DNA of 64,000 nucleotides, from positions 1,544,996 to 1,608,995 of the forward strand of contig CBDAPU010000001.1 in NCBI GenBank assembly GCA_965198875.1, given 5' to 3'. The notes below the pieces were generated by a model. The model saw nothing but the letters and a program-made list of their open reading frames with translations, was not told the origin of the DNA and did not search any database. Below are positions 1-63,899 of the stretch, one piece after another (the first letter of the stretch is position 1; each line of letters begins with the position of its first letter). The stretch is from Gammaproteobacteria bacterium. GTDB lineage: Bacteria; Pseudomonadota; Gammaproteobacteria; Eutrophobiales; Eutrophobiaceae. The translations under genes were made by a program, and so were the position numbers.

Positions 1-96
1 CAAGGATCCAGTGAAGGCAATTCAATCAATGGGTTAAACAGAAAATGGGCGGGTTATCCAGGGCAGTCCCGAAATAAACAGGGAGCGCACGCGCAA

Positions 97-630
97 ATGA
101 AACGGCCGACAGATCACACTGTTTTTCAAAACGCCTGGGTGGTGGATGATATTGAAGCCGCCGCCATGGACTGGGTAGAGACGTTTAATATCGGGCCGTT
201 CTTTCTGGCCGAATACGGCCCGGGGCAACTCACCGATGTGACCTATCGCGGCGAGCCGGGAGAGTTACACATGTATGTGGCCATCGCCCAGGCGGGGGCT
301 GTGCAGATAGAGTTAATCCAGCCAATGGGTGATGCACCCAATGCCTATCGAGACACAGTTCCTGAAGGGCAGAGCGGTTTTCATCATGTCTGTGTCTGGA
401 GCGATGATCTAGACGCCGATCTTAAATACTATGCCGAGCGGGATTGCCCAACGGCAAATGATGGTCGAATAAAAAACGGGCCCCGATTCGCCTACATCGA
501 TAGCCAGGCCAAATTGAATTGTATGCTGGAGCTCCTGGAACGCAATAAGCTGGTTGAAAATGTATTTCAAATGATCGCCGATACGGCCGCAAACTGGGAT
601 GGGAAAAACCCGATCCGGGGATATGAATAA
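97..630 (+). CDS. VOC-family (glyoxalase/bleomycin-resistance/extradiol-dioxygenase fold) protein
   Basis: 177-aa ORF; size and composition typical of a two-module VOC protein. It is divergent/adjacent to the E2 gene. This is a family-level guess from sequence character only. Confidence 0.45.
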   Translation: MKRPTDHTVFQNAWVVDDIEAAAMDWVETFNIGPFFLAEYGPGQLTDVTYRGEPGELHMYVAIAQAGAVQIELIQPMGDAPNAYRDTVPEGQSGFHHVCVWSDDLDADLKYYAERDCPTANDGRIKNGPRFAYIDSQAKLNCMLELLERNKLVENVFQMIADTAANWDGKNPIRGYE

Positions 631-634
631 ACGG

Positions 635-1876
635 CTATATCCGCACGGGATCTTCTATTATCGTTTTTAATCCAGCCAGAAATTGTGCGCCCAGCACCCC
701 GTCTATGGCGCGGTGATCACAGGACAGGCCGATTTTCATGATTTTTATCTCCTGCATACCTTCGCCAGCAGGGACATAGCGTTTACTGATCCTGCCGATA
801 GAAAGGATCGCCCCCTGGGGCGGATTGATGATCGCCTGGAATTCAGTAATGCCGTACATACCTAAATTCGACACCGTAAACGTTGCGCCCCTCAGATCAG
901 CGGAGGTTAAATGATTATTCCGTGCGCGCACACCCAGATCGCTAATAGCCTCACTCAACGCATGAATGGATAAGGACTCAGACTGATGTACCACCGGTGT
1001 GAGTAGCCCGTCATCGGTTGCCACGGCAATGGCCATGTTGATATGTTTGAACTGTCGTACTTCATCATCTACCAGATGAATATTCAACTGCGGGCAATCG
1101 CCTAACGCCAGGATCGCCGCACGCACGATAATGTCATTGACGGAAATCCTGCCCGCCCATTCCCGGTTTAGTTTCTCACGCCTTGATAAGGCTTTGGCAA
1201 CAGCAACTTCCGTGATGAGATAAAAATGCGGGATCTGTTGTTTTGACTGAACCAGGCGCCTGGCGATGCTCTTCCTGAGAGCGCTCAATGGTTTGGCTTC
1301 ATAGGCGGTCGTATCATGATCGGTCTCTCCAGCATGACTTTGTGCATAGTTCTCTACGTCTTCTGAGGAGATCCGCCCTCCCTTGCCGGTAGCGCTTACC
1401 TCGCTAATAGCCACATTCAGCTCTTTTGCCCGGCGTACCGCTGCCGGGCTTGCCTTGACTTTGACCTCACCATAACTGCTTTGGGTCTCTTGCTTTGAGC
1501 TACCCGCTGTGTTGGCGGGGCTCACTGTCGATGTGGGTGGCTCACCGGGATCTTCATCACCGAAAGCGGCGTCAGCCGGTTTGAACTCGGCAATAAATGT
1601 ATCGACTTCAGCATCACTGATCCCGGCATCGGCGATAACACCTAGCAGGGCGCCCACATTCAGGGTTTCCCCTTCTTCAACGATTCTCTTTCTCAGCACG
1701 CCATCAGCGGGGGTGTCCAGGGTATTGATGATCTTCTCGGTCTCTATATCAATCAGCGCTTCACCTTTGTTTACCCTCATACCCTCCTGAATATGCCAGG
1801 CAACGATGGTGCCCTCTTGCATCTCGATCCCCCACTTTGGAACGGTGACAGGATAAATGCCTTCAGCCATTGACAA
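635..1876 (-). CDS. dihydrolipoamide acyltransferase (E2) of a 2-oxoacid/acetoin dehydrogenase complex
   Basis: N-terminal lipoyl domain (IDIETEKI...). Pro/Ala-rich linker. Peripheral-subunit-binding domain (SPAAVRRAKELNV). C-terminal catalytic domain with DHRAIDG motif. Overlaps the E1beta stop by 14 bp. Confidence 0.85.
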   Translation of the reverse strand: MSMAEGIYPVTVPKWGIEMQEGTIVAWHIQEGMRVNKGEALIDIETEKIINTLDTPADGVLRKRIVEEGETLNVGALLGVIADAGISDAEVDTFIAEFKPADAAFGDEDPGEPPTSTVSPANTAGSSKQETQSSYGEVKVKASPAAVRRAKELNVAISEVSATGKGGRISSEDVENYAQSHAGETDHDTTAYEAKPLSALRKSIARRLVQSKQQIPHFYLITEVAVAKALSRREKLNREWAGRISVNDIIVRAAILALGDCPQLNIHLVDDEVRQFKHINMAIAVATDDGLLTPVVHQSESLSIHALSEAISDLGVRARNNHLTSADLRGATFTVSNLGMYGITEFQAIINPPQGAILSIGRISKRYVPAGEGMQEIKIMKIGLSCDHRAIDGVLGAQFLAGLKTIIEDPVRI

Positions 1877-2873
1877 TGGCTCTTATTGCAGCTTCGATTT
1901 TATCCGGGCCGGGGACGTATGCCCGTTCCAATTCCCTGGCGAAAGGCACCGGTGTATGGGGCGCCGTTACTGTTTTCACCGGTGCTTTTAGTAAATGAAA
2001 TGCCCTCTCAGCCACCATGCCGGCAATATCAGAGGCCAGACCGCAACGGGGCGGCGCCTCATCGATGATCACAAGCCTGCCTGTGTGTTCGAGGCTGTCA
2101 AAGATCATCTCATCATCCAGAGGGGATAAACTACGGGGGTCGATTAGATCACAGGTGACGCCTTCTCCCGCCAGTTTATCGATGACTTTCTCTGCAAACA
2201 CCACCATGCGTGCAATGGCGACCACCGTAACATCATCACCTTCACGTATCATGGCCGCCTCACCAATGGGGATCAGGTATTCCTCTTCCGGCACGTCCAT
2301 CTTTCTCGGATAAAGAGCCTTATGCTCGAAGAAGACCACTGGGTCATCGTCCCGGATCGCAGACTTTAGCAGTCCTTTTGCATCACGGGCATTACTGGGA
2401 ACAACGACTTTCAAGCCGGGCACCGCCGTCAACAATGGATAAATGATCTGCGAATGTTGCGCCCCCATATTCATGCCGGCGCCGGTTGCGGTACGGATCA
2501 CCAGTGGGCACCGGGTTTTACCACCGAACATATAACGAAACTTGGCCGCCTGGTTATAGACCTGGTCCATGCAGACGCCGATAAAATCAGCAAACATGAG
2601 CTCGGCAATGGGCCGCAAACCAGCCAGCGCCGCCCCGGCGCCGGCGCCCATGATGGCCGACTCAGAAATGGGCGTATCGATCACCCGTTCCTCGCCAAAC
2701 TCATGAATGAGCCCCTTAGATACACCAAAGATCCCGCCGGCGGCATCCCGTTCACCGGAGGTACCGCCAGCGCCACCTGAGACATCTTCACCCAATATAA
2801 TGACGGCGGGATCACGCCGCATTTCCTCATGCATGGCCTGATTAAGTGCATCACGAAATGAAATAACGGGCAT
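1863..2873 (-). CDS. TPP-dependent dehydrogenase E1 component beta subunit (acetoin/pyruvate dehydrogenase type)
   Basis: Transketolase-like pyrimidine-binding fold signature (VIDTPISE...GAAL.GLRPI.E.MF.DF). 336 aa. Lies in an operon between the E1alpha and E2 genes. Confidence 0.85.
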   Translation of the reverse strand: MPVISFRDALNQAMHEEMRRDPAVIILGEDVSGGAGGTSGERDAAGGIFGVSKGLIHEFGEERVIDTPISESAIMGAGAGAALAGLRPIAELMFADFIGVCMDQVYNQAAKFRYMFGGKTRCPLVIRTATGAGMNMGAQHSQIIYPLLTAVPGLKVVVPSNARDAKGLLKSAIRDDDPVVFFEHKALYPRKMDVPEEEYLIPIGEAAMIREGDDVTVVAIARMVVFAEKVIDKLAGEGVTCDLIDPRSLSPLDDEMIFDSLEHTGRLVIIDEAPPRCGLASDIAGMVAERAFHLLKAPVKTVTAPHTPVPFARELERAYVPGPDKIEAAIRAIVNG

Positions 2874-2893
2874 GGATAGATTATCTTTACGTT

Positions 2894-3865
2894 TTAATAG
2901 CTGATGTAGACATCTTCAAGCGCATCTTCGGGACGGGGTTTTGGCGCTGCTTTTGCCTGCATGACCGCCTTATCGATCAGCGCCATGACCTCGGCGTCAA
3001 TGGCGTCAAGCGCAGTCGCTTCCAACAAACCCTTCTCTGCAACATGTTGATGAAAGTTTTTCAAACAATCCATGGTCTCGCGCAATCGTTTTACTTCACC
3101 CCTGGCGCGATATAATTGCGGATCGCCTTCGAAGTGGCCGAAGTAACGGGTGATCGAACAGGTAACCGCACTCGGTCCCTCTCCATTACGGGCGCGTTCG
3201 ATGGCCTCACCGGCTGCCCCATGGACGGCAAAAAAATCCGCACCATCCACCGTAACTGCCGGCATGCCAAAGCCCCTCGCACGGCCTGCAATATCACCAC
3301 AGCCCACCGCATAGGCGGCGCCGGTGTGTTCGCTGTAACCGTTGTCTTCAAAAATGAATACGGTCGGGACGTTTAATACCACCGCCATGTTCATGGCTTC
3401 AAAAACCGTGCCCTGATTAGTGCCGCCATCACCGGTAAACGATACGCTCACCTTTTTAGTCTTTTGCAATTTTGTCGCTATGGCGGCGCCCACTGCAATG
3501 GGCGGGCCGCCGCCCACGATCGCATTGGCGCCTAACATGCCTTTATCAAAATCGGCAATGTGCATGGAACCGCCTTTGCCTTTGCAGATCCCATCGGCAC
3601 GCCCGTATATTTCCTTCATCATAGCCAGGACATCACAACCTTTTGCAATACAATGCCCGTGTCCCCTGTGCGTGCTGACGATGTAATCATCATCGGCAAG
3701 ATGTTCACAAACGCCCACTGCAATGGCCTCCTGCCCTGCATACAGATGGGTAAACCCGGGAATGTCTCCGGTTTGTATTTCCAGGTGCAGACGCTCTTCA
3801 AACTCGCGAATGGTTTTCATGCCTTGATAGGCACGTAATAACTTCTCTTTCGCTAATTCGCTCAA
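2894..3865 (-). CDS. TPP-dependent dehydrogenase E1 component alpha subunit
   Basis: THLYAGQEAIAVGV...STHRGHGHCIAKG and a TPP-binding GDG...N motif. 323 aa. Confidence 0.85.
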   Translation of the reverse strand: MSELAKEKLLRAYQGMKTIREFEERLHLEIQTGDIPGFTHLYAGQEAIAVGVCEHLADDDYIVSTHRGHGHCIAKGCDVLAMMKEIYGRADGICKGKGGSMHIADFDKGMLGANAIVGGGPPIAVGAAIATKLQKTKKVSVSFTGDGGTNQGTVFEAMNMAVVLNVPTVFIFEDNGYSEHTGAAYAVGCGDIAGRARGFGMPAVTVDGADFFAVHGAAGEAIERARNGEGPSAVTCSITRYFGHFEGDPQLYRARGEVKRLRETMDCLKNFHQHVAEKGLLEATALDAIDAEVMALIDKAVMQAKAAPKPRPEDALEDVYISY

Positions 3866-3912
3866 GGTGAGATACCTGGTAGGTTAATTTTTATATCCAT
3901 CAGACTGAAACC

Positions 3913-5196
3913 TTACTCGCTCAAATACGCTTCAAGCACTTTATGAAAATGCCGGATCCGCAATTCCTGCTCTCCTATCCATAGCCCGTCAAAGCCCCGC
4001 GAGCCCATGCCCCGCTGTACGTGAGGTAAGTTCTCTGCATCCTGTCTGATCACCAAATGGGTCTTCTTCTCGCCATGGATAAAACTATCATGCGCTGGTC
4101 TGTCCTCAGGCCATTTCTCACCATCAGCAACCAGCTCGAGCACCCAGAAATCAAAGAACATTTTATTCGGATCCTCAGGATGCGGTCTTTGTCTGAACAC
4201 CCACAGATCATCGGCATGTACATTCATGGTGACATTGGGAAAGATGAGATAATGATAATCATCAGTGAGTTGCTCATCATGAAGGCGGGAATAGTCGCGA
4301 CCAATTTTTGCGCCATGTTCACGTTTCCAGGCCTGCAGGTCTTCACGCACATCCTGAGGCTTACCCTCATAATCCGCCGGTTCCATGCCCGCCTCACTCA
4401 TCATCTGCCGCATCCCCGGCGGCACATCCGGCGGCATAGGCACTCTTGGGCTTAACGTGGCGAACTTGATCAAATAGCGGCTGTGTTTATCGTAGCAGTC
4501 GATTTGAATATTCACATCATCCAGGTGATATAATAACTGCGGGTGTATGCCCTGCACATGATAACTTTCATTGAAGGCGTCCACGGAGGTCTTCCAGTTG
4601 CAGTCCCATTCGATCGTCACGTCCTCTTTCAGGGCCATCTTCTGAAAACGATACGGCTCAAGGTGTTCTGGAATAATATCCAGATAATCCAGCAACGGCT
4701 CGACATCCGGATCAAAACTAAACCAGATGAAACCACCCCAGGTATCACAGGGCAGCGCTTTTAATCCGTAACAGGGCCTGCCCTGGGGGAAGGTATCCTC
4801 ATCGGGAATACGTTTGAAAGAGCCATCGAGATGATACTCCCAGTGATGATAGGCACATTGAAACGACTCCGCCGTACCCATGCCAGGCGGTCGCAAACGG
4901 TTACCGCGATGTTGACACACATTATAAAAAGCGCGGATCCCATGATCCTGCTGGCGAACAATCAATACCGATTCAGGGCCGATTTCACTGACGATGTAAT
5001 CACCCGGCGCTTTTATATCCGCTTCCAACGCACCCAGTAACCATACCTTGGTCCACATCCTCTCCCACTCCCGCTGCATAAACTCCCTGCAGACATACCG
5101 TTCTTTCGGGATCATGTCATGACCCAATTCTGGATCGGGGATCTTCTCCAACGGCGTTTTCTGCATCCCGATGAGGTTGTCTTTATTGGCGGCCAT
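3913..5196 (-). CDS. Rieske [2Fe-2S] non-heme-iron oxygenase alpha subunit (GbcA/CntA-like; no beta subunit present)
   Basis: Rieske motif CQH-x17-CAYHHW in the N-terminal third. C-terminal catalytic domain has conserved His/Asp. 427 aa. No adjacent small-subunit or reductase gene. Confidence 0.8.
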   Translation of the reverse strand: MAANKDNLIGMQKTPLEKIPDPELGHDMIPKERYVCREFMQREWERMWTKVWLLGALEADIKAPGDYIVSEIGPESVLIVRQQDHGIRAFYNVCQHRGNRLRPPGMGTAESFQCAYHHWEYHLDGSFKRIPDEDTFPQGRPCYGLKALPCDTWGGFIWFSFDPDVEPLLDYLDIIPEHLEPYRFQKMALKEDVTIEWDCNWKTSVDAFNESYHVQGIHPQLLYHLDDVNIQIDCYDKHSRYLIKFATLSPRVPMPPDVPPGMRQMMSEAGMEPADYEGKPQDVREDLQAWKREHGAKIGRDYSRLHDEQLTDDYHYLIFPNVTMNVHADDLWVFRQRPHPEDPNKMFFDFWVLELVADGEKWPEDRPAHDSFIHGEKKTHLVIRQDAENLPHVQRGMGSRGFDGLWIGEQELRIRHFHKVLEAYLSE

Positions 5197-5213
5197 GCTA
5201 TTTGTGTGCGGAA

Positions 5214-5975
5214 CTAGAACTGCACCCGTTTGGTATAACCATTATCAACAACCAGATTGACGCCGTTGATGGCGCTGGCGGCAGGACTTGAGATAAATGC
5301 GACAGTCCTGGCGACTTCTTCAGGCACGACCATACGACCTGTCGGAATTTGTCGCAGTGTTCTCTCGTAGAACTTCTCATTGCTGATCTTGAGCATTTCC
5401 CAGGCGCCGCCCTCGAAGTAAACCGGGCCGGGGCAAACACAGTTGATGCGTATGTCATGTTTGCCGACGAATTGACTTAATTGTTTCGCATAATTGACCA
5501 GGGCTGCTTTCATGGCATTGTATGCCATGGGGCCACCGAAGGTTTCAACCGCATTGGTGGAGCTGATGATGGTAATTGCGCCGCCACCCCCTTCCTGCAT
5601 TTTTGGCAACAGGATCTCGCAGGCACGCACCGTGTGTAATACGTCAATCTCAAAATTACGCCACCAGTTACGCTCTGAATCCATACCGGCTCCGCCACTC
5701 ACATTGGCGATAAAAATATCTGCGCCGCCCAAGCCCTCGGCTGCCTCCTCAACCCATGTTTTGTATTCATTCTCATCACGTACATTCAGCGCTTTGCCAA
5801 TGGCCCGCACACCCCGATCTTCCAGGGCTTCCACGGTTTCATTGACGGCCTCTTCATCACGGGCACAAAAGCCAATATCGACTTTCTCTCTGGCGAGCAA
5901 TTCAGCAATAGCCCGACCAATACCACGGGTCGCCCCGGTCACCAGGGCCTTTTTACCTTTTAATCCCAGATCCAT
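5214..5975 (-). CDS. short-chain dehydrogenase/reductase (SDR)
   Basis: TGATRGIGRAIA Rossmann motif and NAG...YNAMK catalytic motif. I prefer the start at the ATG at 5975, which has a GGAGGAG Shine-Dalgarno. The longest ORF extends to 6068. Confidence 0.75.
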   Translation of the reverse strand: MDLGLKGKKALVTGATRGIGRAIAELLAREKVDIGFCARDEEAVNETVEALEDRGVRAIGKALNVRDENEYKTWVEEAAEGLGGADIFIANVSGGAGMDSERNWWRNFEIDVLHTVRACEILLPKMQEGGGGAITIISSTNAVETFGGPMAYNAMKAALVNYAKQLSQFVGKHDIRINCVCPGPVYFEGGAWEMLKISNEKFYERTLRQIPTGRMVVPEEVARTVAFISSPAASAINGVNLVVDNGYTKRVQF

Positions 5976-6180
5976 CGTCTCTCCTCCCATGAGGTTAAGT
6001 GCGTGTTTTATTAAAGGCGCAACCATGAGATGCGCCCACGTTATCAGCGTAAGGATGATTATAGTCAAACAGACAAATAATAAACAGTCAGGCTTGTTTG
6101 TTTTTCCCGATCACCCCTATGCCCCACAACAAATGCACTAGGCCAGTGGGCGCTTGCTTTGAATGTGAATACGGGATTGC

Positions 6181-6933
6181 TTACTGCACAGACAAGGCGT
6201 TATCGATAACCAGCTCCTCGCCATTGATAAAACGCGACTCATCGCTGGCCAGAAACAAAACCAGATTAGCGACATCCTCGGCAGCGCCAACCCCGATTAG
6301 ATCCGCCTCCCCGGAGGGTTCCAGCCCCAGCATGGCATTGGCCTGGGTCACCATTGGGGTATCCATGGAGCCGGCATGGACAGAATTGCAGCGGATATTG
6401 TATTTGTTCATCTGGCAGTGAACGGCGATGGATTTGGTCATGGATCTGACCGCACCTTTTGCTGCGCTGTAGGCAAAGAAAACAGGATAACCCAGGTGAG
6501 AGGCAATGGACGACATATTAATAATGGAGCCGCCACCACTGCGCTGCATTAACGGGATGGCTGCTCTGCACCCTAAAAATACACCCTCGGACATAACCGC
6601 ATTGGCACGCCTGAACTCATCCAGCGTTGTCGTCTCGGGAGTGGCGACGATGACGATGCCGGCGTTGTTCACCAGAATATTCAACCCCCCATAACGCGCC
6701 TGCACCTGCTTGATGGTATCTTCCCATTCAGACTCACGGGTGACATCCTGCCTGATGAAAACGGCCTCACCTTTTAACTCTGATTTTATGTGATCGGCCA
6801 CTGCCTGACCGGCGTCATTTATATCGGTCAACACGACGCTCGCCCCCTGTCTCGCCAGCAAAATGGCGTCCGCCTTGCCAAGACCTGACGCCGCCCCGGT
6901 CACCAGCGCCACTTTATTCGTCACTCTACCCAT
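6181..6933 (-). CDS. short-chain dehydrogenase/reductase (SDR, 3-oxoacyl-ACP-reductase-like)
   Basis: KVALVTGAASGLGKA...NNAG...YSAAK motifs. Start ATG at 6933 gives MGRVTNK; the longest ORF extends to 6972. Confidence 0.75.
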   Translation of the reverse strand: MGRVTNKVALVTGAASGLGKADAILLARQGASVVLTDINDAGQAVADHIKSELKGEAVFIRQDVTRESEWEDTIKQVQARYGGLNILVNNAGIVIVATPETTTLDEFRRANAVMSEGVFLGCRAAIPLMQRSGGGSIINMSSIASHLGYPVFFAYSAAKGAVRSMTKSIAVHCQMNKYNIRCNSVHAGSMDTPMVTQANAMLGLEPSGEADLIGVGAAEDVANLVLFLASDESRFINGEELVIDNALSVQ

Positions 6934-7110
6934 AGCAGGGCTCCATTTTGAAAGATGAGCAAAGCGTATCAATGCACAAACAGGCTTGCAAACTATAACA
7001 GGATTTCACTTGTGATGTTGCATGTCAGCGGGTATAAAATGCTGAGTGGGTCTCGATGCGATACGGAAATAGTTAAGGAAACAGCCTCATAAAACACTAC
7101 CCAGGATAAA

Positions 7111-7767
7111 ATGGCTAACGCTGATAATGCCAATAAACCCCGGCAAACACCCAAAGGGCCGGGGGATGCTGGCTGGCAGGCACATAAAAGCTCAAACACC
7201 AGAGATCAGATCCTGGAGGCGGCGATAAAGTGCATTGTTGAGATGGGCTACGCCAACACGACGACAATTAAAATTGCCGAGCGGGCGGGATTATCGCGGG
7301 GTGCGACACTGCATCATTTCCCATCCAGAATGGGGATCATTCGTGCGGCAGTGGATTACCTGCATCAAAAACGCCTGCGTGCGTTTAGAAAATCCGTCGC
7401 GCATATTCCCAAAGATGTTGATCACGTAAAGATGGCGGTGGAATTTTACTGGGCACATGTTACACACCCCTTGTATGTTGCCTTCTTCGAGCTATCGGTG
7501 GCCGCCAGATATGACAGGGAATTGCGAGACATACTGCGACCTGCACAACAGGCGTTCGATGATGAATGGTATAAAACAGCGCAGGAACTGTATCCTGAAT
7601 GGCAATCAGACACAGATGCCTTTGATCTCGCCCTCAACTTGTCACAGCACTTAATGGAAGGCATGGCGATCAGCTATTTAACCCATGCCAGGGATGATAA
7701 AAAGGAAGTACTGCTCCAGTATCTGGAAAACAGCATTCGCTCCCTTGCACCTGATGAGGGAAGATAG
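7111..7767 (+). CDS. TetR-family transcriptional regulator
   Basis: N-terminal HTH (RDQILEAAIKCIVEMGYANTTTIKIAERAGLSRGATLHHFPSR). Divergent from the SDR-Rieske-E1-E2 operon. Confidence 0.8.
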   Translation: MANADNANKPRQTPKGPGDAGWQAHKSSNTRDQILEAAIKCIVEMGYANTTTIKIAERAGLSRGATLHHFPSRMGIIRAAVDYLHQKRLRAFRKSVAHIPKDVDHVKMAVEFYWAHVTHPLYVAFFELSVAARYDRELRDILRPAQQAFDDEWYKTAQELYPEWQSDTDAFDLALNLSQHLMEGMAISYLTHARDDKKEVLLQYLENSIRSLAPDEGR

Positions 7768-7831
7768 CGTCTTTATTCGGGAAGCCTTATTGAATACGAC
7801 ACGCCAAACCCGAAATAGCAGGCCATAGTGA

Positions 7832-8209
<378 letters not shown>

Positions 8210-8376
8210 CTTTGCAAAATAATGACAGGGATTGCTTCACGCATTCGCTGGCGATCATCACCCTTGCCGACGCGTTTTCAATACCTGCACTTCCCACATA
8301 TCAGCCGCGCCGCATGCAAGACAGGCTTTTATTTATGCCAGTAACCTTTTTATCCGCCGCTACCGAGGAAAAAATA

Positions 8377-9059
8377 TCACAAGCAAGGCAGATTCGAAAT
8401 TCCTATCGACGGACTACAGAGAACCCTGTCAAAAATCCATGCTGTAGTAGCAAGAAGTGAGAAGGAAAATTCAGCGTCTTTGTCATGACCGGGTTCGTTG
8501 CTCGCCACCGCTTGGATACTCGCCTTTCCTGCATGGGTCTGTATCACCAGTTGCGCCCCGACATCCACCTGCCTGCCGGATGGCTCAAGATTCGCATCAA
8601 GGGTTTTTTTCAATATCGCCCCCGCAGGAATAACCAGCCCCATTGTCCCGCTCTCCACTCTCACCAGGGAAGAAACCGAAAGTCGTATACCAGAACCTGC
8701 AAAAGTCTGCGGCTTGACTCTAATGCAAATAAACTTGTTATCACCTCAGATATATCACTAATCAAACCAGCTCCACTCCCGACATAAGACCCACCCATCT
8801 GTGCATCCCCGATCAGATCCCAGTCCGCCAGTCCATAATCAAAGCCCATGCTGGCAAAAACCGTCGATGAAGACAGATCCCCTAAGACGCCCTCCACAGT
8901 CACCCTAATAACAGACCTTGACTCTGCAATGTAACCCGAGCCAAGATGCAAGGGCAGGCCCGGCAAACGGTATGAAACAGCTACGCCCGGGGCAGGCTTC
9001 GTGGTAGGGCGGTCCTGACCACTGTGCCCAAGGGCAACAATCCCGCCAGGCAAGCACAC
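8377..9059 (-). pseudogene. frameshifted ORF pair (132 aa + 95 aa) of unknown function, probable gene remnant
   Basis: Two consecutive minus-strand ORFs overlap by 4 nt in different frames. No recognisable family and no good start context. They lie in a 1.1-kb stretch with no other coding signal. Confidence 0.2.
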
Positions 9060-9351
9060 TGAAAGAGACAGGGCTCTTGCCCGCTGTTATCCATAGTGAC
9101 CGATACGATAACAACATCCCATCCCGAAAACCCGAGCGTGAACGGCGCACTTGCTTTTTATCTCTCATGTGCGATGGGCTCCCCGGCTTATGCCACCCAT
9201 AGAAATTTTAGGCTAAAATCAACGAATGTTTATAGTTGATGATGTTTGCCTGTTTCAGGGCTTGGCTATAACATGCTGAATTAAGCTATTTCGCATCAAA
9301 GCCAATGCTGCCTTTCACATTGGGCCGCTCGCTTTACCATGACATTAGCGG

Positions 9352-10979: not shown

Positions 10980-11064
10980 TGGTGCGGATGGTGAGAATCG
11001 AACTCACACTCCCGAGGGAACGGGTTTTTGAGACCCGCGCGTCTACCAATTCCGCCACACCCGC
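10980..11064 (-). tRNA. tRNA-Leu (anticodon CAA)
   Basis: The reverse complement reads GCGGGTG-TG-GCGGAATTGGTAGACGC-GCGGGTCTCAAAAACCCG-[long variable arm]-GTGAGTTCGATTCTCAC-CATCCGC-A-CCA. This gives a 7-bp acceptor stem, anticodon loop CU-CAA-AA, a class-II long variable arm, a GTTCGATTC T-loop and an encoded CCA. It closely parallels E. coli leuX. Confidence 0.8.
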
Positions 11065-11237
11065 ACGGGTTAAATTATAACGGCTTTGCCCAGGGCCGGA
11101 TCCGTTTTTTCCTGCCCGTCTTCTTAACCGCCTTGATCATTTTTATCGCCCCCGGCGTCTGCCGTATTATCCATCAAGCGCTTCCTGATCGGCATATCTA
11201 TCGCCTCGATCATCTCCGTTGGGTCGCAATCACGCGG

Positions 11238-11405
11238 TCATTGGATCGCCACCATCTCAAAATCTTCCTTTCTGGCGCCGCATTCCGGGCACATCCAGTT
11301 AAGCGGCACATCTTCCCACTTTGTGCCAGGTTCAATACCATCATCCGGCCAGCCTTTCTCTTCCTCATAGATATAGCCACAAATAACGCACAGGTATTTT
11401 TTCAT
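11238..11405 (-). CDS. rubredoxin (55 aa; missing from the ORF track because it is under 60 aa)
   Basis: Hand translation gives [55 protein letters not shown] with both CxxCG knuckles (CVICG, CPECG) and conserved aromatic residues. Codon-by-codon verified; stop TGA at 11238-11240. Confidence 0.8.
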
Positions 11406-11464
11406 GATGGTTAGCCCTTAAATCTTCTTGGTCGCCTCGGCTGTGAGTCGCTACAATATGCCCC

Positions 11465-12256
11465 ATGAGAGAGGCCGCAAAACCGGTTGTGCTGGCTTTA
11501 TCAGGCCATGATCCATCGGCCGGCGCAGGATTACAAGCCGATATTGAGGCCCTCGGCAGCACCGGGTGTCAGTGTGTTTCCGTGATCACCTCACTCACCA
11601 CGCAAAATACCGCACGCCTCACGGCTATCCAGCCGCAGCCGCCAGAGCAGTTTGCAGCGCAGTTACATCTGCTCACGGAAGACATCCGGGTGGATGTCTG
11701 CAAAATCGGCTTGATCGGCAGTGTTGAACTCGCCGAGGTGATTGCGGATTATCTCTCCACCAGCGGCCTGCCCACAGTGCTGGACCCGATTATTTATGCG
11801 GGCACAGGTGATAAAATAACCGGCGCAGATCTGCTTCAGAGCATCATCACAAACCTGCTGCCACATACCGCCATCATCACCCCCAACCTCAGGGAGGCGT
11901 TCAGTTTGACCGGCTGTGATGAGGCCGCCGACGCATTACCGGCATTATTAAAAATGGGCTGTGATGCGGCGCTGCTGACCAATGCGGATGCAGTGCAGAA
12001 AGAGGTGATCAACACCTTCATGGACTCCCGCGCCAGCATAGTCCGCTACCGATGGGAGCGCTTGCCGGGCACATATCACGGCTCAGGGTGTACCCTGTCG
12101 GCGGCCATCGCAGGCTATCTGGCCCGGGGTGATGGGATCCAGTCAGCCGTTGAGCAGGCCCAGGAATACACCTGGCGAACCCTCAGCAGGGCGAGAAAGA
12201 TCGGCCGCTCACAACTACACCCCGAACGTCTCTTTAATCTCGAAAATGAAAAATAA
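11465..12256 (+). CDS. thiD: hydroxymethylpyrimidine/phosphomethylpyrimidine kinase
   Basis: VVLALSGHDPSAGAGLQADIEALGSTG... PfkB-like fold with ThiD N-terminal signature. 263 aa. Confidence 0.85.
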   Translation: MREAAKPVVLALSGHDPSAGAGLQADIEALGSTGCQCVSVITSLTTQNTARLTAIQPQPPEQFAAQLHLLTEDIRVDVCKIGLIGSVELAEVIADYLSTSGLPTVLDPIIYAGTGDKITGADLLQSIITNLLPHTAIITPNLREAFSLTGCDEAADALPALLKMGCDAALLTNADAVQKEVINTFMDSRASIVRYRWERLPGTYHGSGCTLSAAIAGYLARGDGIQSAVEQAQEYTWRTLSRARKIGRSQLHPERLFNLENEK

Positions 12257-12884
12257 CCCGCTCCCCGGCAAAGGGCTCTATGCGATCACCGATTGTGCGA
12301 ACCTGGACACGGACACATTGCTCGAAAGAACGGAGCGCATCCTAAAAGCCGGGATCAGCATGTTGCAATATCGGGACAAATCAGGGGATAGGCGAAAGCG
12401 CGCCTATGAGGCCCGGGCCCTGGCCCGGCTTTGCAGGGAACACGGCTGTCCGTTTTTGATCAACGATGATATTACGCTGGCGAAAAACCTGCCGGGTGAT
12501 GGCGTGCATTTAGGGGCCGATGATGGCGGTTGTCGCCTTGCAAGGCAAGCGCTGGGGGCGGATGCGATCATCGGACTATCCTGTTATAACGACCTTGCCC
12601 TCGCCATATGCGCCGAGCAAGAGGGCGCCGACTATGTCGCCTTCGGCGCCTTCTACCAGACGAGAACAAAACCGGGCGCCACCAGGGCGGCCCCGGAGAT
12701 CATCTCCGAGGCGAAACACAGCCTGTCAATCCCGGTTATCGCCATCGGTGGCCTCACACCGGAGAATTGCCAGCCACTACTCTCCCGGGGGGCGGACATG
12801 CTCGCCGTTGCCCGTAGCCTCTACCAGAGCACAGACCCCCATGCCGTTGTGGGAGACTTCAATCGGCTACTACACCAACACTAA
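12246..12884 (+). CDS. thiE: thiamine-phosphate synthase
   Basis: GLYAITD...LQYRDKS...FLINDD...GVHLGADD...IGLSCY... motifs. Start ATG at 12246 overlaps the thiD stop. The longest ORF from 12129 adds an unlikely 39-aa extension. Confidence 0.85.
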   Translation: MKNNPLPGKGLYAITDCANLDTDTLLERTERILKAGISMLQYRDKSGDRRKRAYEARALARLCREHGCPFLINDDITLAKNLPGDGVHLGADDGGCRLARQALGADAIIGLSCYNDLALAICAEQEGADYVAFGAFYQTRTKPGATRAAPEIISEAKHSLSIPVIAIGGLTPENCQPLLSRGADMLAVARSLYQSTDPHAVVGDFNRLLHQH

Positions 12885-12893
12885 CTGACGACA

Positions 12894-14168
12894 ATGAATG
12901 ACCGACTTTTCGAAGAGGCGAAACGCTATATTCCAGGCGGCGTTAACTCCCCCGTGCGTGCCTTCAGGGCCGTTGGCGGCACGCCGGTTTTTTTTCAGCG
13001 GGGCAGCGGCGCCTACCTTTATGATCATAACGATAAGCCCTACATAGACTATGTGGGCTCATGGGGGCCGTTGATCCTCGGCCATGCGCACCCGCTCATC
13101 GTTGAGAAGGTGACCCGGGTGATGGCGAACGGCCTCACTTTCGGTGCGCCCACAAGTCTGGAGACGGCTCTGGCCAGGAAGATCTGCGAACTCATGCCGA
13201 GCATTGAGAAGATCAGGATGATGAGCTCGGGAACCGAAGCCGCCATGACGGCGATCAGGCTGGCCCGTGCTTATACCGCTCGAGATAAGATCGTAAAATT
13301 CGAGGGCTGCTATCATGGCCACACCGACCCCCTGCTGGTGAAGGCCGGCTCCGGCGCCCTGACCTTAGGCATTCCCACCTCGCCGGGGGTGCCGAAGGAC
13401 ACCGCAAAACACACGCTCACACTGGCCTTTAACGACCCATCTCAAATACGCCGGGTATTCAGCGACATGGGCGATGAGATCGCCGCCGTCATTGTCGAGC
13501 CTGTTGCCGGCAACATGAATTGCGTGCCCGGCTCACCGGCGTTTCTCCAGGCCCTGCGGGCGGTGTGCGATGAACACCGGGCGCTCCTCATCTTCGATGA
13601 GGTCATGAGTGGCTTTCGTGTTGCCCTGGGCGGGGCGCAATCGCTCTACAGCATAAAACCCGATCTGTCCATATTGGGCAAAGTCATCGGCGGTGGTATG
13701 CCCGTGGGCGCATTGGGCGGCAGAGAAGAGATCATGAACCACCTCGCCCCCGATGGCGCCGTCTACCAGGCCGGCACATTATCCGGCAACCCCATTGCCA
13801 TGGCGGCCGGCCTCGCCACCTTAAACCTCATCTCCGAGCCCGGTTTTTTCGACGCCTTATCCCATAAGCTCACCAGCCTGCTCGATGGCCTGAAAGATAC
13901 CGCCCGCTCCTGTGGCCTCCCCCTGTCAAGCAATCAGGCCGGCGGCATGTTCGGCTTGTTTCTCTCAAGCGCAGGGCCTGTCACAACCTATGAGCAGGTC
14001 ATGGCATGCGATAAAGACCGCTTTAACCGATTCTTCCACGGCATGCTGGACAGGGGCGTTTACTTTGCGCCATCGGCATTTGAGGCCGGCTTCATCTCCA
14101 GTGCCCACGGCGAGGATGAAATCGCCACCACCATCGAGGCCGCCGAGGCGGTATTCAAACAGCTTTAA
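12894..14168 (+). CDS. hemL: glutamate-1-semialdehyde 2,1-aminomutase
   Basis: [19 protein letters not shown]...[11 protein letters not shown] and the PLP-lysine region. 424 aa. thiD-thiE-hemL order as in Pseudomonas. Confidence 0.9.
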
Positions 14169-14576
14169 CCAACTTATGCCTGGCATGGTAAAGTATCAAC
14201 CGCCAGTGCAAACGAGGGGAGACAACAACACATCCACCTTTGTTGACGGGCGGGCACGCACGCCCCCCGGCCCACCGCAATCTCGCCGCCCCCTGCACGT
14301 CAGGCGCAAACAGCATGATCCTGATCCCCACAGCCCCTGGCGCAACACCTCCCGGCATCGAAAATCCGTCACTCATCTTTGGCATTCACGCAGACTTTTC
14401 CCTATAATCCCACCCGGGCACAAGCCCCAAAAAAGCAGACCAACCCACAACAAGGCGCAACAACACCGGGAGCACCACACAGATGAACATCGGCATCGGC
14501 GACAAGGGTAAAATCCTGACAATCCTGAAAACACTATTTAAATCAATAACTTAACAAACCCAAACCGGTCGATAAC

Positions 14577-15575
14577 GTGCAGATAGCCGCCGAGCTCTCC
14601 CGCACCTATGGGGGTGAGATAACGCCACTGAATGCCGACGGCGACGCCCCGGGGGACGTGAACGCGTATCTCTTTGTCGACCCCACCGGCCCGGCCGCCC
14701 AGGCGGCCTCAGTGGGGGCGCTGTTGCCGGGTCTGCTGGCCGGTGGAAGCGACCCCCTCATCTGGGGCGAGCTCTTCGCCTCTGACCGCCGCCGTGGACG
14801 GGATGGCTTCTCATTAGCCCACGGCCATGACTACCGGGGCGTACTCTTCGGCGCCGAGCAGGGCTATGCAAACGGACAACAGCGCTTAGGTGTACTCTTT
14901 GGCTATGCGGACGCCGACATCAACACCCACCTGCGCTCCCTGGACCTCGAGACCGGCAGCGTCTTTGGCGGGCTCTATGGTCGTATCTCAAAGGAGAGCC
15001 TGGATATCAACCTGGGACTGAATCTGGGCTATGAGTTCCATGATAACCGCCGTTATATCCCGCAACTGGATACGGAGGCCGAGGCCGACTACAACAGCTT
15101 CTTCATCAACCCCTGGCTGGGTCTCAGTCGCACCTGGTCCTTGCAGGATAATCTGGAGCTGCGCCCGGCCTTCCTGCTGAACTACACCTTCGCCCGTTAT
15201 GAGGGCTATGAAGAGCGAGGGGGCGAGGGCTTCGCCATTGACGTGGGCAGTCGCATCGCCCACAACCTCACCACCCGGGCGCAGGTGGCCGGGGTGTGGA
15301 CACTGCCGGATACGAGCAATGAGCTGGGACTGCGCTTAGGTGTTGAAGGACGCCTCGCCGGTGGCGGTGACTTCAAGGGGAGTCTCGGTGGGTCGAGCTT
15401 CAGTTACAGTGACACGGGCGATAAGCGTGCGACCAGCGTCTTTATCGGCCTGGACGGTCGCCATGCCTTCAGTGATGACCTGACCCTGCAGGTGGATGTG
15501 GAATACAGCCACGACCTCGGCGGGGTGAGTGAGCGTACTCTCGGTGGCTTTGTGCGCTTGGAGTATGAGTACTGA
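14577..15575 (+). CDS. autotransporter-type outer-membrane beta-barrel (translocator) domain with no signal peptide or passenger; probable truncated remnant
   Basis: 332 aa rich in alternating aromatic/Gly residues (ADYNSFFINPWLGLSRTW..., ...GGFVRLEYEY*). GTG start. No signal peptide. The 400-bp upstream region is non-coding. Confidence 0.4.
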   Translation: MQIAAELSRTYGGEITPLNADGDAPGDVNAYLFVDPTGPAAQAASVGALLPGLLAGGSDPLIWGELFASDRRRGRDGFSLAHGHDYRGVLFGAEQGYANGQQRLGVLFGYADADINTHLRSLDLETGSVFGGLYGRISKESLDINLGLNLGYEFHDNRRYIPQLDTEAEADYNSFFINPWLGLSRTWSLQDNLELRPAFLLNYTFARYEGYEERGGEGFAIDVGSRIAHNLTTRAQVAGVWTLPDTSNELGLRLGVEGRLAGGGDFKGSLGGSSFSYSDTGDKRATSVFIGLDGRHAFSDDLTLQVDVEYSHDLGGVSERTLGGFVRLEYEY

Positions 15576-41743: not shown

Positions 41744-44623
41744 TCAATCGGGCAGGACTTCGGCCTTCTTTTTGCGGGTTGTCTTCTTGCGGGCTTTGCG
41801 CTTTCTAAATAGCGGTGCAAGATGCTGTCCCGTGTATGAGTGATGTTGCCTGGCTAATTCTTCAGGTGTGCCGAAGGCAATGATCTCACCGCCGCCATCA
41901 CCGCCTTCCGGGCCCAGATCGATAATCCAGTCCGCTGTTTTTATGACATCCAGATTATGCTCAATGATCACAACGGTGTTGCCATGATCCCTTAGCCTGT
42001 GCAATACACCGAGCAGTTGCTTCACATCATGAAAATGCAGTCCCGTGGTCGGCTCATCGAGGATATACAGGGTTTTACCCGTATCTCGCTTGGACAATTC
42101 CCGGGAGAGTTTCACCCTTTGCGCCTCACCCCCTGAGAGCGTCGTCGCATTTTGACCCAGGTGGATATAGGAAAGCCCCACATCGATCAATGTTTGCAAC
42201 TTGCGGGCGATCACCGGCACGGGATCAAAAAACGCCCTTGCCTCTTCCACCGTCATCTGCAACACCTCGTTGATGTTTTTACTTTTATAACGCACGTCCA
42301 GTGTTTCCCGGTTATATCGCCTGCCTTGACATACGTCACAGTCCACATACACATCCGGCAGAAAATGCATCTCAACCTTGATCACCCCGTCACCTTGACA
42401 GGCTTCACACCTGCCGCCTTTCACATTGAAGCTGAAACGACCGGGTTTATAGCCCCTGGAACGCGCCTCCTTCGTGGCCGAGAACAATTCCCTTATTGGC
42501 GTAAACAGCCCGGTGTATGTGGCCGGGTTTGAACGGGGCGTGCGTCCAATGGGGCTTTGATCTATATCGACAACCTTATCAATCTGTTTCAGTCCGGAAA
42601 TGGACTTATAGGGGGACGGATCGACGTTAGCGCCATTTAACTCCCGGCTGGCGATGCGATACAAGGTATCATTGATGAGGGTGGATTTGCCCGAGCCGGA
42701 CACCCCGGTCACACAGGTCATCAACCCCAGGGGTAATGCCAGTTTGATTGATTTCAGATTATTGCCCGTTGCGCCGCTGAGTCTTATTATCCGTTTTCTG
42801 TTATATGCGGTGCGCTCCCCGGGTATGTTGATCTGTGCGCGGCGGGACAAATAATCACCCGTCAACGATGCGGTATTGGCCGCAATGTCATCTGGCGCCC
42901 CCTGGGCGACAACACGTCCCCCATGTACACCTGCGCCCGGGCCCATGTCAATAACATGATCTGCGGCATTGATAGCCTCTTCATCATGCTCAACGACAAT
43001 GACGGTATTGCCTAGGTCCCTGAGGTGTTTCAATGTCGACAACAAGCGATGATTATCACGCTGATGCAACCCGATAGAGGGCTCATCCAGCACATACATG
43101 ACGCCCACCAGCCCGGCCCCGATTTGACTTGCCAGGCGTATACGCTGCGCCTCACCGCCGGATAAGGTCTCCGCGCTTCTGTCCAGGGTTAAATAATCCA
43201 GACCCACATTCACCAGAAACTGCAATCGCGCCCCCACTTCTTTCAGTATCTTCCCGGCAATCTCACCACGTCTACCCGGGATGTTTAACGTCAGGAAAAA
43301 GTCCTGGGCCGCTATCACCGGCATGGCCGTTATCTGCGGCAAACTCGTGTCATGGATAAACACATGCCGCGCCGATTGATTTAAGCGATGCCCATGACAG
43401 GATAGACAGGGCTGGCTGCTTTGATACTTCATCAGCTCTTCGCGCACCATGGATGACTCGGTTTCATGATAACGCCGTTGCATATTGGGTATGATCCCCT
43501 CAAAGGGATGGGTGCGTTTCACCGAGCCCCGTTTATCATGCAGATATTCAAATTCAATCTTCTCATCACCACTGCCGTTTAGGATGATCGAGCGGATTTT
43601 TTTGCCTAGCCTTGAAAAAGGGGCGTCAATATCAAATGTGTAGTGCTTCGCCAGCGATACCATCATCTGATAATAATAGGCATTGCGTCTGTCCCAACCG
43701 CAAATCGCCCCGCCGGGCAGGCTAAGAGAGGGATCCTGTACCACCTTGCCGGGGTCAAAAAACGGGATCATCCCAAGACCATCACAGGCAGGGCATGCCC
43801 CTGAGGGGTTATTAAAAGAGAACAACCGCGGCTCCATTTCACTTAAACTATAACCACATTCTGAGCAGGCGAAACGGGTTGAAAACACCAGCTCATCAGC
43901 CGTCTCATCGTCCATGGAAGAGACAATAACCAGGCCCTCAGAGAGCCTGATCGCCGTCTCCAGTGACTCCGCCAGACGCAAGGCGATATCCGCCCTGATC
44001 CGAAACCGATCAACGATGACCTCAATCGTATGTTTTTGACGCAAACCAAGAGCCGGGGCATTTTCCAACTCCATGACTTTCCCATCGATCCTTGCCCTGA
44101 CAAACCCCTCGGCCCTCAATCTATCCAGTATTTGCACATGCTCACCTTTGCGCCCCTGAACCACAGGCGCTAACAACATCAGAGCTTGCCCCTGCGGCTG
44201 CTCCAGGATCAAGTCCACCATCTGGCTGATGGTCTGCGCCGCCAGGGTGGTATTGTGAGTTGGACATCGAGGCTCACCGACCCGGGCGAACAATAACCGC
44301 AGATAATCGTAGATCTCGGTAATGGTGCCGACCGTTGAACGGGGGTTGTGTGAAGTGGATTTTTGCTCGATGGAGATGGCTGGCGATAGCCCTTCTATGT
44401 GATCGACATCGGGTTTTTCCATCATCGAGAGAAACTGCCGGGCATAGGCCGACAGGGACTCCACATAGCGCCGCTGCCCATCTGCATAAATCGTATCAAA
44501 GGCGAGGGAGGATTTACCGGAGCCGGATAGCCCGGTGATGACCACCAGTTTATCCCGCGGCAGATCCACGTCAATGCTTTTCAAATTGTGTGTTCTCGCC
44601 CCGCGAATCCTAATAGCGTTCAT
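41744..44623 (-). CDS. uvrA: excinuclease ABC subunit A
   Basis: 959 aa. Two ABC ATPase modules ([10 protein letters not shown]; [10 protein letters not shown]). Zinc-finger Cys clusters. Canonical N-terminus [15 protein letters not shown]. Confidence 0.95.
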
Positions 44624-62882: not shown

Positions 62883-63081
62883 CCATGCCGCTAAGATAGG
62901 CGGTAGACAGGCTAAGCTGAATGACTTGCGCTAAGGCCGTCTCATCGAGCTCCGGCAGCAGTGCTGGCAGGGCGGCCTCGAACTCATCGAGGGACTTGCC
63001 TTGCCTCTCAAACTCAATCAGCGTGTCATAGATAATGCCGGACACGGCGCCGTGCAGCCGGGTGAGACCCTGGAACTGCAC
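62857..63081 (-). CDS. 74-aa ORF immediately 5' of the Mu-F-like gene; possible C-terminal remnant of a portal gene
   Basis: GTG start; an in-frame stop lies 8 codons upstream, so it cannot be longer. In Mu-like modules the portal gene precedes gpF. No direct homology visible. Confidence 0.2.
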   Translation of the reverse strand: MQFQGLTRLHGAVSGIIYDTLIEFERQGKSLDEFEAALPALLPELDETALAQVIQLSLSTAYLSGMDESTDARR

Positions 63082-63191
63082 CCCCGCCAGGCGGTGTTTC
63101 TCTTAACCACCGGGGTGATTGAGAAAGCGCAGACCACAGCGCCCCCCGCTAAAACAACCCGCAAAGGCGCTCAGCCTAAGGAGACGAGAAC

Positions 63192-63491
63192 ATGACCAGG
63201 TATGACCTGCTGCCGCGCACCGCTGAGGGTGAGGTGGATGTGGAGAAGGTGCAATTCCCGATCCATCTGCCGCTACTCTCACCGATTACCGTCAATGGTG
63301 AGGCCATCGATGAGTTGGTGCTCCGTGAACCCAACATCAACGATATGGAGATCGCCGGACGGGAGAAGTCGGACATCCTCAAGATGCGCTGTCTCATCGC
63401 CCAGGTGGCCGAGCTTAGCCCGGATGAAGCGGGCCTGATTGGCGGGCGAGATACCCGCCGCTTAAATGAGTTGCTTGCCCATTTTTTATGA
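63192..63491 (+). CDS. P2 gpE-like tail assembly chaperone (E)
   Basis: 99 aa; ...ITVNGEAIDELVLREPNINDMEIAGREKSD...LIAQVAELSPDEAGLIGGRDTRRLNELLAHFL matches the short gpE/gp41-type tail chaperone pattern. It ends in the slippery heptamer T_TTT_TTA. Confidence 0.6.
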   Translation: MTRYDLLPRTAEGEVDVEKVQFPIHLPLLSPITVNGEAIDELVLREPNINDMEIAGREKSDILKMRCLIAQVAELSPDEAGLIGGRDTRRLNELLAHFL

Positions 63492-63879: not shown

Positions 63880-63899
63880 ACTTGCCAGTATAGCATCTC

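Follow-up and report, generated by a model that had tools for sequence, protein, structure and literature searches.

A conserved TetR-linked operon joining an alpha-only Rieske oxygenase to an acetoin-dehydrogenase-type E1/E2 pair, beside a hemB remnant in a gammaproteobacterial genome

Acetoin-dehydrogenase-type complexes (AcoABCL) are known almost solely from the use of acetoin and butanediol. Classical aco operons pair a short-chain dehydrogenase (SDR), acting as butanediol/acetoin dehydrogenase, with AcoABC: a diol is converted to a ketol, which is cleaved with thiamine pyrophosphate (TPP) to acetyl-CoA and an aldehyde. The steroid 17,20-desmolase DesAB and 2-hydroxyacyl-CoA lyase (HACL) likewise use TPP to cleave a C-C bond beside a carbonyl bearing a vicinal hydroxyl. 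Here we analyse a gene cluster that places an E1/E2 pair of apparent acetoin-dehydrogenase descent directly behind an alpha-only Rieske oxygenase. It occupies positions 97 to 7,767 of a 64,000-nucleotide stretch, hereafter the window, of the genome of a Gammaproteobacteria bacterium (assembly GCA_965198875.1, contig CBDAPU010000001.1). Alpha-only oxygenases have been described in steroid degradation, namely KshAB and the KshA-like enzymes of sphingomonads (Nov2c228, Sphingobium sp. Chol11), which are encoded in islands with SDRs, acyl-CoA dehydrogenases (ACADs), MaoC hydratases, thiolase/DUF35 pairs and TonB receptors (10.1101/2021.06.24.449856, 10.1101/2021.05.19.444901).

Genes were called from a six-frame list of open reading frames (ORFs) together with Pfam and NCBIfam profiles, and the locus of the closest relative (L001; L numbers denote loci from other genomes) served as alignment reference. 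The eight genes, their order and strands, the divergent TetR gene and the adjoining VOC gene, as given in a preliminary description made from the sequence, were confirmed by the ORF list and both profile sets. The cluster comprises the following features:

1-35, plus strand: 3' end of an ORF truncated by the left edge of the window and co-directional with the VOC gene (stop TAA at 33-35), too short to identify
97-630, plus strand: VOC-fold protein (Glyoxalase_4, PF13669, 58.7 bits)
635-1870 (1876 with an upstream TTG), minus strand: E2 dihydrolipoyl acyltransferase, with lipoyl (PF00364), E3-binding (PF02817) and catalytic (PF00198) domains
1863-2873, minus strand: TPP-dependent E1beta of the acetoin-dehydrogenase clade (PF02779 and PF02780)
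2894-3865, minus strand: TPP-dependent E1alpha of the acetoin-dehydrogenase clade (PF00676)
3913-5196, minus strand: Rieske non-haem-iron oxygenase alpha, the catalytic subunit (PF00355 and PF00848)
5214-5975, minus strand: SDR2, a classical short-chain dehydrogenase (PF13561/PF00106)
6181-6933, minus strand: SDR1, a classical short-chain dehydrogenase and the first gene of the operon (PF13561/PF00106)
7009-7038, minus strand: conserved 30-bp element, TTTATACCCGCTGACATGCAACATCACAAG (TTTATACCnnnTGAnnTnCnnnnTnACAAG), in the divergent intergenic region between TetR and SDR1
7111-7767, plus strand: TetR-family regulator, divergent from the operon (N-terminal helix-turn-helix, PF00440)

The starts of the two SDR genes were placed at 5975 and 6933 by alignment to L001, replacing the longest-ORF starts at 6068 and 6972. 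E1beta and E2 do overlap as first described, but the 14 bp reported hold only for the upstream TTG, and the homology-supported ATG at 1870 leaves 8 bp. This overlap and the small intergenic gaps of the operon (17-47 bp) indicate a single transcript. The VOC and E2 genes are convergent, with 4 bp between their stop codons. Each of the eight proteins can be aligned over essentially its whole length with its L001 counterpart, indicating that the genes of the window are intact, and the identities in these pairs range from 77 to 93% (E1beta 93%, TetR 83%, VOC 80%), except for E2 (58%).

A genome scan with the Rieske protein of the window gave 80 loci, on which all window proteins were then searched by tblastn. 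The arrangement of a divergent TetR gene followed by SDR1-SDR2-Rieske-E1alpha-E1beta-E2, with or without the VOC gene, has dozens of counterparts among Gamma-, Alpha- and Betaproteobacteria, including gammaproteobacterial metagenome-assembled genomes (MAGs), Woeseiaceae, Elongatibacter, Steroidobacteraceae, Burkholderiales, Hydrogenophaga, Niveispirillum and many Sphingomonadales. The same gene order in dozens of genomes points to a conserved operon and not to a one-off hybrid. Linkage was counted over 58 loci with a Rieske orthologue of at least 60% identity, with denominators that differ by feature. SDR2 lies immediately upstream of the Rieske gene at 55 of 56 loci and E1alpha immediately downstream at 34 of 54, in three proteobacterial classes, with E2 following at 27 of 45. 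SDR1 precedes the Rieske gene by no more than 5 kb at 40 of 50 loci, and a nearby TetR gene keeps its divergent position at 30 of 45. The VOC gene is a less constant member (a homologue within 6 kb downstream of the Rieske gene at 10 of 41 orthologue loci, and the family anywhere in 16 fetched loci), and the closest match in a metagenome scan with the VOC protein as query was 53%. Among Rieske paralogues at 50-60% identity, mostly from Chloroflexota, the linkage is gone. Several orthologues lie on megaplasmids or chromids, as in Niveispirillum cyanobacteriorum, Croceicoccus marinus, Terrarubrum flagellatum, Novosphingobium resinovorum, strain PP1Y, Sphingobium RAC03 and Paracoccus pantotrophus/versutus, and those of cultured strains carry generic annotation only.

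Two further loci of this set deserve mention. In a Hydrogenophaga intermedia MAG (L029), the E1 is almost identical to that of Niveispirillum (L023/L085) in neighbour-joining (NJ) trees, and the Rieske gene and its neighbours match in identity and layout, reflecting either a recent horizontal transfer or a mis-binned contig. Plasmid pNL2 of Novosphingobium aromaticivorans DSM 12444, a model sphingomonad known as a bile-salt degrader, carries a paralogue-rich cluster (L086, record positions 144177-169442) with four Rieske-alpha genes, three NTF2-like proteins, a P450, several SDRs, ThuA, VOC, a large FAD-dependent oxidoreductase, TetR and a TonB receptor. The oxygenase family is thus expanded in this species.

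E1alpha and E1beta appear from their sequences to be a dedicated offshoot of AcoA/AcoB, forming a clade nested in the radiation of acetoin-dehydrogenase E1 proteins. They are 60 and 56% identical to the E1 subunits of an Acinetobacter plasmid operon (order lipA-E1alpha-E1beta-E2-...-acetoin reductase-2,3-butanediol dehydrogenase) and 59 and 55% identical to those of a Salmonella E1-E2-lpdA-lipA operon, versus 38-40% to a pdhA so named by PGAP. The E1 is also 51% identical to that of an Enterococcus operon with a sigma-54 regulator, lpdA, E1, E2 and 2,3-butanediol dehydrogenase. NJ trees of both subunits agree with this, and with the acetoin type proposed in the preliminary description: the Rieske-linked E1s are monophyletic, sister to those of Acinetobacter and Salmonella, placed inside the Enterococcus aco E1 and far from pdhA. 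Class boundaries are broadly respected in the E1 tree, the Hydrogenophaga MAG being the one clear exception. Among solved structures, E1 matches pyruvate dehydrogenase (PDH; E 1e-50) and branched-chain 2-oxoacid dehydrogenase (BCKDH; E 1e-28). None of the three proteins attains the NCBIfam equivalog cut-off for a PDH complex of the heterotetrameric E1 type (E1alpha 310 vs 394 for TIGR03182, E1beta 341 vs 454 for NF008854, E2 337 vs 445 for TIGR01349). E1alpha and E2 are under all PDH and 2-oxoglutarate dehydrogenase (OGDH) equivalog cut-offs, and E1beta passes the broad PDH-E1beta subfamily model NF006667 (342.8 vs 321). The catalytic domain of E2 contains the DHRxxDG motif.

The locus thus shares with AcoABCL a heterotetramer-type TPP E1alpha and E1beta followed by a lipoyl E2 in one operon with SDR-type dehydrogenases. 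It differs in its separate E1 clade, in the oxygenase gene directly upstream, in a TetR regulator instead of the sigma-54 AcoR, in an operon without E3 or lipA, in SDRs that are neither BudC nor acetoin-reductase equivalogs, and in a surrounding regulon probably geared to a large, CoA-processed substrate. No lipA or sigma-54 regulator was found in the cluster or, by Pfam, among the 20 larger ORFs of the window.

The Rieske protein carries the motif C94-Q-H96-x17-C114-A-Y-H117-H118, which does not vary among 35 homologues. The same holds for N209-E210-S-Y-H213-x4-H218 and for D386, the predicted carboxylate ligand of the iron. PDB sequence matches cover the N-terminal half only (naphthalene dioxygenase alpha, E 1e-29; CntA, 4e-26), as does the best NCBIfam match, GbcA (NF058607), with 125.8 bits against a cut-off of 670. 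CntA is the best fold match to the AlphaFold (AF2) model (pLDDT 79, pTM 0.83), with TM 0.65 and ~20% identity. The description of a CntA/GbcA-like, alpha-only protein was borne out by these nearest structural neighbours, and no beta-subunit (small-subunit) gene stands beside the Rieske gene in the orthologue loci, its neighbours being SDR2 or ThuA on one side and E1alpha on the other. The weak similarity to CntA and GbcA and the score far below cut-off mark it as a distinct clade of alpha-only oxygenase. With the CntA/GbcA/Stc2 group, the protein shares the alpha-only architecture, the PF00848 catalytic domain and the best structural neighbours; it differs in its ~20% identity, in the use by its relatives of a separate ferredoxin and reductase in place of a fused reductase, and in a context devoid of amine metabolism. 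It resembles the KshA type as an alpha-only mono-oxygenase inside a catabolic island with SDR, ACAD, MaoC, thiolase/DUF35 and TonB genes, but it has a PF00848 domain, no KshA is found among its solved-structure matches, and KshA-type bile-salt clusters as described contain no TPP E1/E2. The bile-salt side-chain cluster of Sphingobium sp. Chol11 was considered as the same system and rejected, its Rieske proteins having been described as KshA homologues and no TPP enzyme being present. Paralogues that are 36-38% identical to the window protein occur in steroid-degrading sphingomonads.

The electron partners and the wider regulon are best seen in the relatives. The order in L001 is MaoC> TetR< SDR> SDR> Rieske> E1a> E1b> E2> VOC< SDR< ThuA> VOC> PQQ> ABM< CoA-ligase< (PQQ, pyrroloquinoline quinone dehydrogenase). 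In fuller relatives the operon contains or adjoins genes for a 104-aa putidaredoxin-type ferredoxin, for a separate ferredoxin reductase of the glutathione-reductase type and for a ThuA-domain protein. In L081, L082 and L089 the Fer2 ferredoxin and the reductase lie inside the operon, indicating that the Rieske protein is part of a working three-component oxygenase, while lpdA was found in the regulon of the Paracoccus island only. In the window, tblastn with the relatives' ferredoxin, candidate reductase, ThuA, MaoC, PQQ dehydrogenase, CoA-ligase and ABM proteins gave no match in the 64 kb, and no E3 or oxygenase beta subunit was seen, these two having been looked for only by Pfam on the 20 larger ORFs and by gene spacing. 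The reported absence of E3, reductase, ferredoxin and beta subunit from the window is thus upheld. It is not a feature of the system, since relatives encode a ferredoxin, a reductase and once lpdA in the regulon. The ORF at the left edge of the window and the L001 genes beyond VOC indicate that the regulon probably continues off the window, and the present copy is probably a trimmed version or one cut at coordinate 1.

Other recurrent neighbours in relatives are MaoC, a Rieske-type ferredoxin, ACAD, a second VOC, PQQ dehydrogenase, ABM proteins, CoA ligases, family III CoA-transferase, an SCP-x thiolase with a DUF35 protein and glutathione S-transferase, as well as TonB-dependent receptors and further Rieske-alpha paralogues. 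The recurrent TonB receptors, CoA ligases, ACADs, MaoC, thiolases, CoA-transferases and PQQ dehydrogenases suggest a hydrophobic, CoA-processed substrate. Genes of the ThuA family, named for trehalose utilisation, also stand beside Rieske or SDR genes (PF06283; L081-L083, L084, L087, L089 and 18 fetched loci), sometimes two per island.

Concerning the dehydrogenases, the best solved relative of SDR1 is the Comamonas 3beta/17beta-hydroxysteroid dehydrogenase 1hxh (E 3e-49), followed by R-specific secondary-alcohol dehydrogenases, while the nearest solved structures of SDR2 are generic (sorbose reductase, E 5e-30). Both are sub-threshold matches to the BudC model (164 bits for SDR1 and 126 for SDR2, cut-off 270), and SDR1 reaches 148 bits against a cut-off of 304 for the acetoin-reductase model TIGR02415. 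The only meaningful solved relative of the VOC protein is 3gm5 (E 3.5e-11), a putative methylmalonyl-CoA epimerase. From its divergent position, the TetR protein would be the repressor of the operon. The 30-bp element occurs at the equivalent site in L001 (8140-8169), L002 (8159-8188) and L003 (8138-8167), and its core also in L056, with zero chance matches expected; no match was found in loci more distant than these closest four. It is a candidate TetR operator or promoter. No inverted repeats were found in the two intergenic regions, and promoter and terminator consensus scans gave no more than shuffled sequence would.

Taken together, we see an even chance that the cluster is the core of a conserved, TetR-repressed catabolic operon in which the SDRs and the Rieske oxygenase make a 2-hydroxy-ketone that the Aco-derived E1/E2 cleaves to an acyl-CoA. 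In such a pathway, the SDRs and the alpha-only mono-oxygenase would convert a secondary alcohol or ketone to an acyloin, one SDR making or adjusting the carbonyl and the oxygenase hydroxylating the adjacent carbon. The substrate would be a hydrophobic molecule, probably alicyclic or branched and CoA-activated. E1alpha/E1beta with TPP would then split the bond joining the carbonyl and carbinol carbons, opening the ring if the acyloin lies within one. The acyl fragment, possibly acetyl, would pass from E1 to the lipoyl arm of E2 and on to an acyl-CoA that could feed the neighbouring beta-oxidation-type genes, the other fragment leaving as an aldehyde or ketone. The VOC protein would most likely work as an enediolate-type epimerase or isomerase, on either the ketol or the acyl-CoA product, and E3, ferredoxin and reductase would act in trans, encoded off the window or shared with housekeeping systems. 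The scheme is the most economical reading in that it extends the diol-ketol-cleavage logic of classical aco operons, with their pairing of an SDR and AcoABC, to a larger substrate, into which the oxygenase would introduce the second oxygen, one that acetoin and butanediol have from the start. The similarity of SDR1 to secondary-alcohol and hydroxysteroid dehydrogenases also counts in its favour. DesAB and HACL share the chemical logic of ketol cleavage, by analogy only; they have transketolase-like or single-chain HACL subunits, no lipoyl E2 and no Rieske link. More tentatively, and with a chance somewhat short of even, Rieske hydroxylation beside the carbonyl followed by ketol cleavage by the Aco descendant may be a route for breaking alicyclic or isoprenoid compounds that bear a ketone or a secondary or tertiary alcohol, through the opening of a ring or the loss of a side chain.

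A number of observations weigh against this proposal. The coupling of Rieske and E1/E2 genes is strong and not obligatory: about one third of the orthologue loci lack E1/E2 adjoining the Rieske gene, VOC replaces E1 directly downstream of it at 9 of 55 loci, and the E1/E2 genes of Paracoccus lie 25 kb away. E2, at 58% identity to L001 and 36% to the Acinetobacter E2, is far less conserved than E1, and the NJ trees were built quickly from distances, have no support values and include few reference sequences. The activity of the window copy depends on genes outside the window, no ferredoxin, reductase, ThuA or E3 having been seen in the 64 kb. Finally, sequence alone cannot separate acyloin cleavage from 2-oxoacid decarboxylation with certainty. 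The main rival is alpha-oxidation, in which the Rieske enzyme would 2-hydroxylate an acid blocked for beta-oxidation (3-methyl-branched or ring-attached), an SDR would form the 2-oxoacid, E1/E2/E3 would release CO2 and an acyl-CoA one carbon shorter, and the VOC protein, as a methylmalonyl-CoA-epimerase-like enzyme, would racemise this product for beta-oxidation. The complete 2-oxoacid-dehydrogenase architecture of E2, including its E3-binding domain, the E1beta score above the PDH-E1beta subfamily cut-off, neighbouring beta-oxidation genes, family III CoA-transferases and MaoC, and the VOC relative 3gm5, a putative methylmalonyl-CoA epimerase, all fit such a route. We nevertheless consider it unlikely: E1 nests among the E1s of acetoin operons (51-60% identity) and not with pdhA or BCKDH, 2-hydroxy acids are rarely oxidised by SDRs, and SDR1 resembles secondary-alcohol and hydroxysteroid dehydrogenases.

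Less probable again, and very unlikely in our view, is that two unrelated modules are neighbours here, a genuine acetoin/2,3-butanediol system (E1/E2 and an SDR) beside an independent Rieske/SDR hydroxylation. The closeness of E1alpha to its counterpart in a true aco operon (60% identity), the sub-threshold matches of both SDRs to BudC/acetoin-reductase models and the occurrence of the Rieske-SDR pair without adjacent E1/E2 in some genomes would agree with it. The adjacency of Rieske and E1alpha genes at 34 of 54 loci in three proteobacterial classes, the separate clade of Rieske-linked E1 subunits, the TetR regulator in place of the sigma-54 AcoR, the SDR scores well under both cut-offs and the gaps of 17-47 bp, which imply co-transcription, argue for one system. 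The preliminary description had also raised a compound derived from a quaternary amine as substrate, and we regard a betaine- or carnitine-like pathway, with the Rieske protein acting as GbcA or CntA, as highly improbable. GbcA is indeed the best NCBIfam match and CntA the best fold match, and the position of E210, a glutamate three residues before the first iron-ligand histidine, is common to the CntA/GbcA/Stc2 group. However, the GbcA score (126 bits against 670) concerns the N-terminal half only, the identity to CntA is ~20%, and the partner in relatives is a separate ferredoxin with a glutathione-reductase-type reductase and not a GbcB/CntB-type fused reductase. Moreover, no BCCT/betaine transporter or C1/glycine-pathway genes were seen, the neighbours being genes of CoA-dependent, lipid-type catabolism and TonB receptors.

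Beyond the TetR gene, the window continues with a truncated hemB and core genes, for which the following features are relevant:

7850-8209, plus strand: C-terminal third of hemB (porphobilinogen synthase), matching PF00490 profile positions 195-305 of 317
7925-8209, plus strand: 94-aa ORF of the hemB remnant
10980-11064, minus strand: tRNA-Leu(CAA), the sole Rfam match, 3.2 kb from the cluster border and with no integrase or repeat
41744-44623: UvrA, a core marker

The ALAD profile match confirms that the edge of the cluster abuts a truncated hemB, which bounds the cluster on the right and lies outside the pathway. Homology begins at ~7850, ~80 bp past the TetR stop, the first ~200 residues being gone; seven further residues are missing from the interior of the remnant and its C-terminus is scrambled, with in-frame stops upstream at 7826-7831, and a protein search with the remnant returned mostly short partial proteins of at most 75% identity. 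The preliminary description had asked whether the same order stands beside an intact hemB in many genomes: the order recurs in dozens, while hemB adjoins it in none. Next to the remnant, the only ORFs over ~1.1 kb (8212-9350) are broken ones on the minus strand (from 9168 down to 8377). This stretch has no Pfam and no Rfam match and could represent a degenerate gene or what a rearrangement left behind; a frameshifted outer-membrane-protein gene was considered for this region and dropped for want of Pfam support. Redoxin, HemJ, tRNA-Leu, ThiD, ThiE and a HemL-like aminotransferase follow, and these core genes indicate that the cluster abuts a native haem/thiamine neighbourhood at the scar. Elsewhere in the window, a GC-rich stretch at 11000-15000 (0.57-0.60) covers the thiD/thiE/hemL-like/autotransporter region, and a phage Mu F-like gene (61644-62882) lies at the right end, where GC reaches 0.59 (62000-64000).

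Whether the cluster is a recently acquired genomic island inserted into hemB can be weighed from this junction. Its end lies only ~80 bp from the remnant, followed by uninterpretable debris, and in L001 and L003 MaoC adjoins TetR where the window has the hemB remnant, their flanks sharing nothing with those of the window. The proteins of the cluster best match L001, yet UvrA is only 77% identical to that of the L001 genome, which ranks ~93rd; ~90 protein clusters have a closer UvrA, up to 83%, and their large contigs (1-3.8 Mb) are not among the top Rieske matches. This discordance, from one marker and from contigs matched by their length, hints at lateral spread or differential loss. The GC content at third codon positions (GC3) of the cluster is slightly lower (0.565 vs 0.607, p = 0.002), but falls within the range of other window genes, and its codon usage is indistinguishable from that of the rest of the window (p = 0.44). 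There is no integrase, insertion sequence/transposase or direct repeat at the visible right border, and the nearest tRNA is 3.2 kb off. After an insertion, the missing 5' portion of hemB would be expected beyond the left edge of the window, and a deletion in a resident cluster, reaching from MaoC into the middle of hemB, accounts for the junction just as well. Lastly, the E1 tree largely tracks class-level taxonomy, suggesting long residence. A recent island is therefore rather unlikely. The island-like context first proposed is upheld only in part: the codon usage is native and mobility genes are lacking at the visible border, but the hemB junction and the discordance between UvrA and cluster identities suggest a rearrangement and possibly an old lateral transfer. 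We conclude that the cluster is an old, occasionally transferred module, here beside a deletion or rearrangement that destroyed a hemB copy and removed MaoC.

The enzyme families of the operon are all known; what is new is the conserved design of the pathway, in which an Aco-derived complex has been recruited behind a Rieske mono-oxygenase. No characterised homologue was found in the literature, in line with the earlier remark that this is not a textbook layout. For the window itself the result is more modest, namely an intact but partial copy beside a hemB rearrangement scar. More generally, a dedicated Aco-type clade is fixed beside a Rieske oxygenase in abundant environmental bacteria, including marine-sediment Woeseiaceae, sphingomonads, Niveispirillum and Paracoccus, and related oxygenase paralogues occur in sponge-associated Chloroflexota. 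Cultured and sequenced carriers exist, so that the hypothesis is directly testable. If ketol cleavage is true, it would be a new ring- or chain-opening strategy for compounds of the steroid, terpenoid or naphthenic type, and a thioester-conserving alternative to Baeyer-Villiger oxygenation in marine-sediment, freshwater and soil bacteria. It would also give a role to a large family annotated as aromatic ring-hydroxylating dioxygenase alpha subunits, whose members are probably not aromatic dioxygenases.

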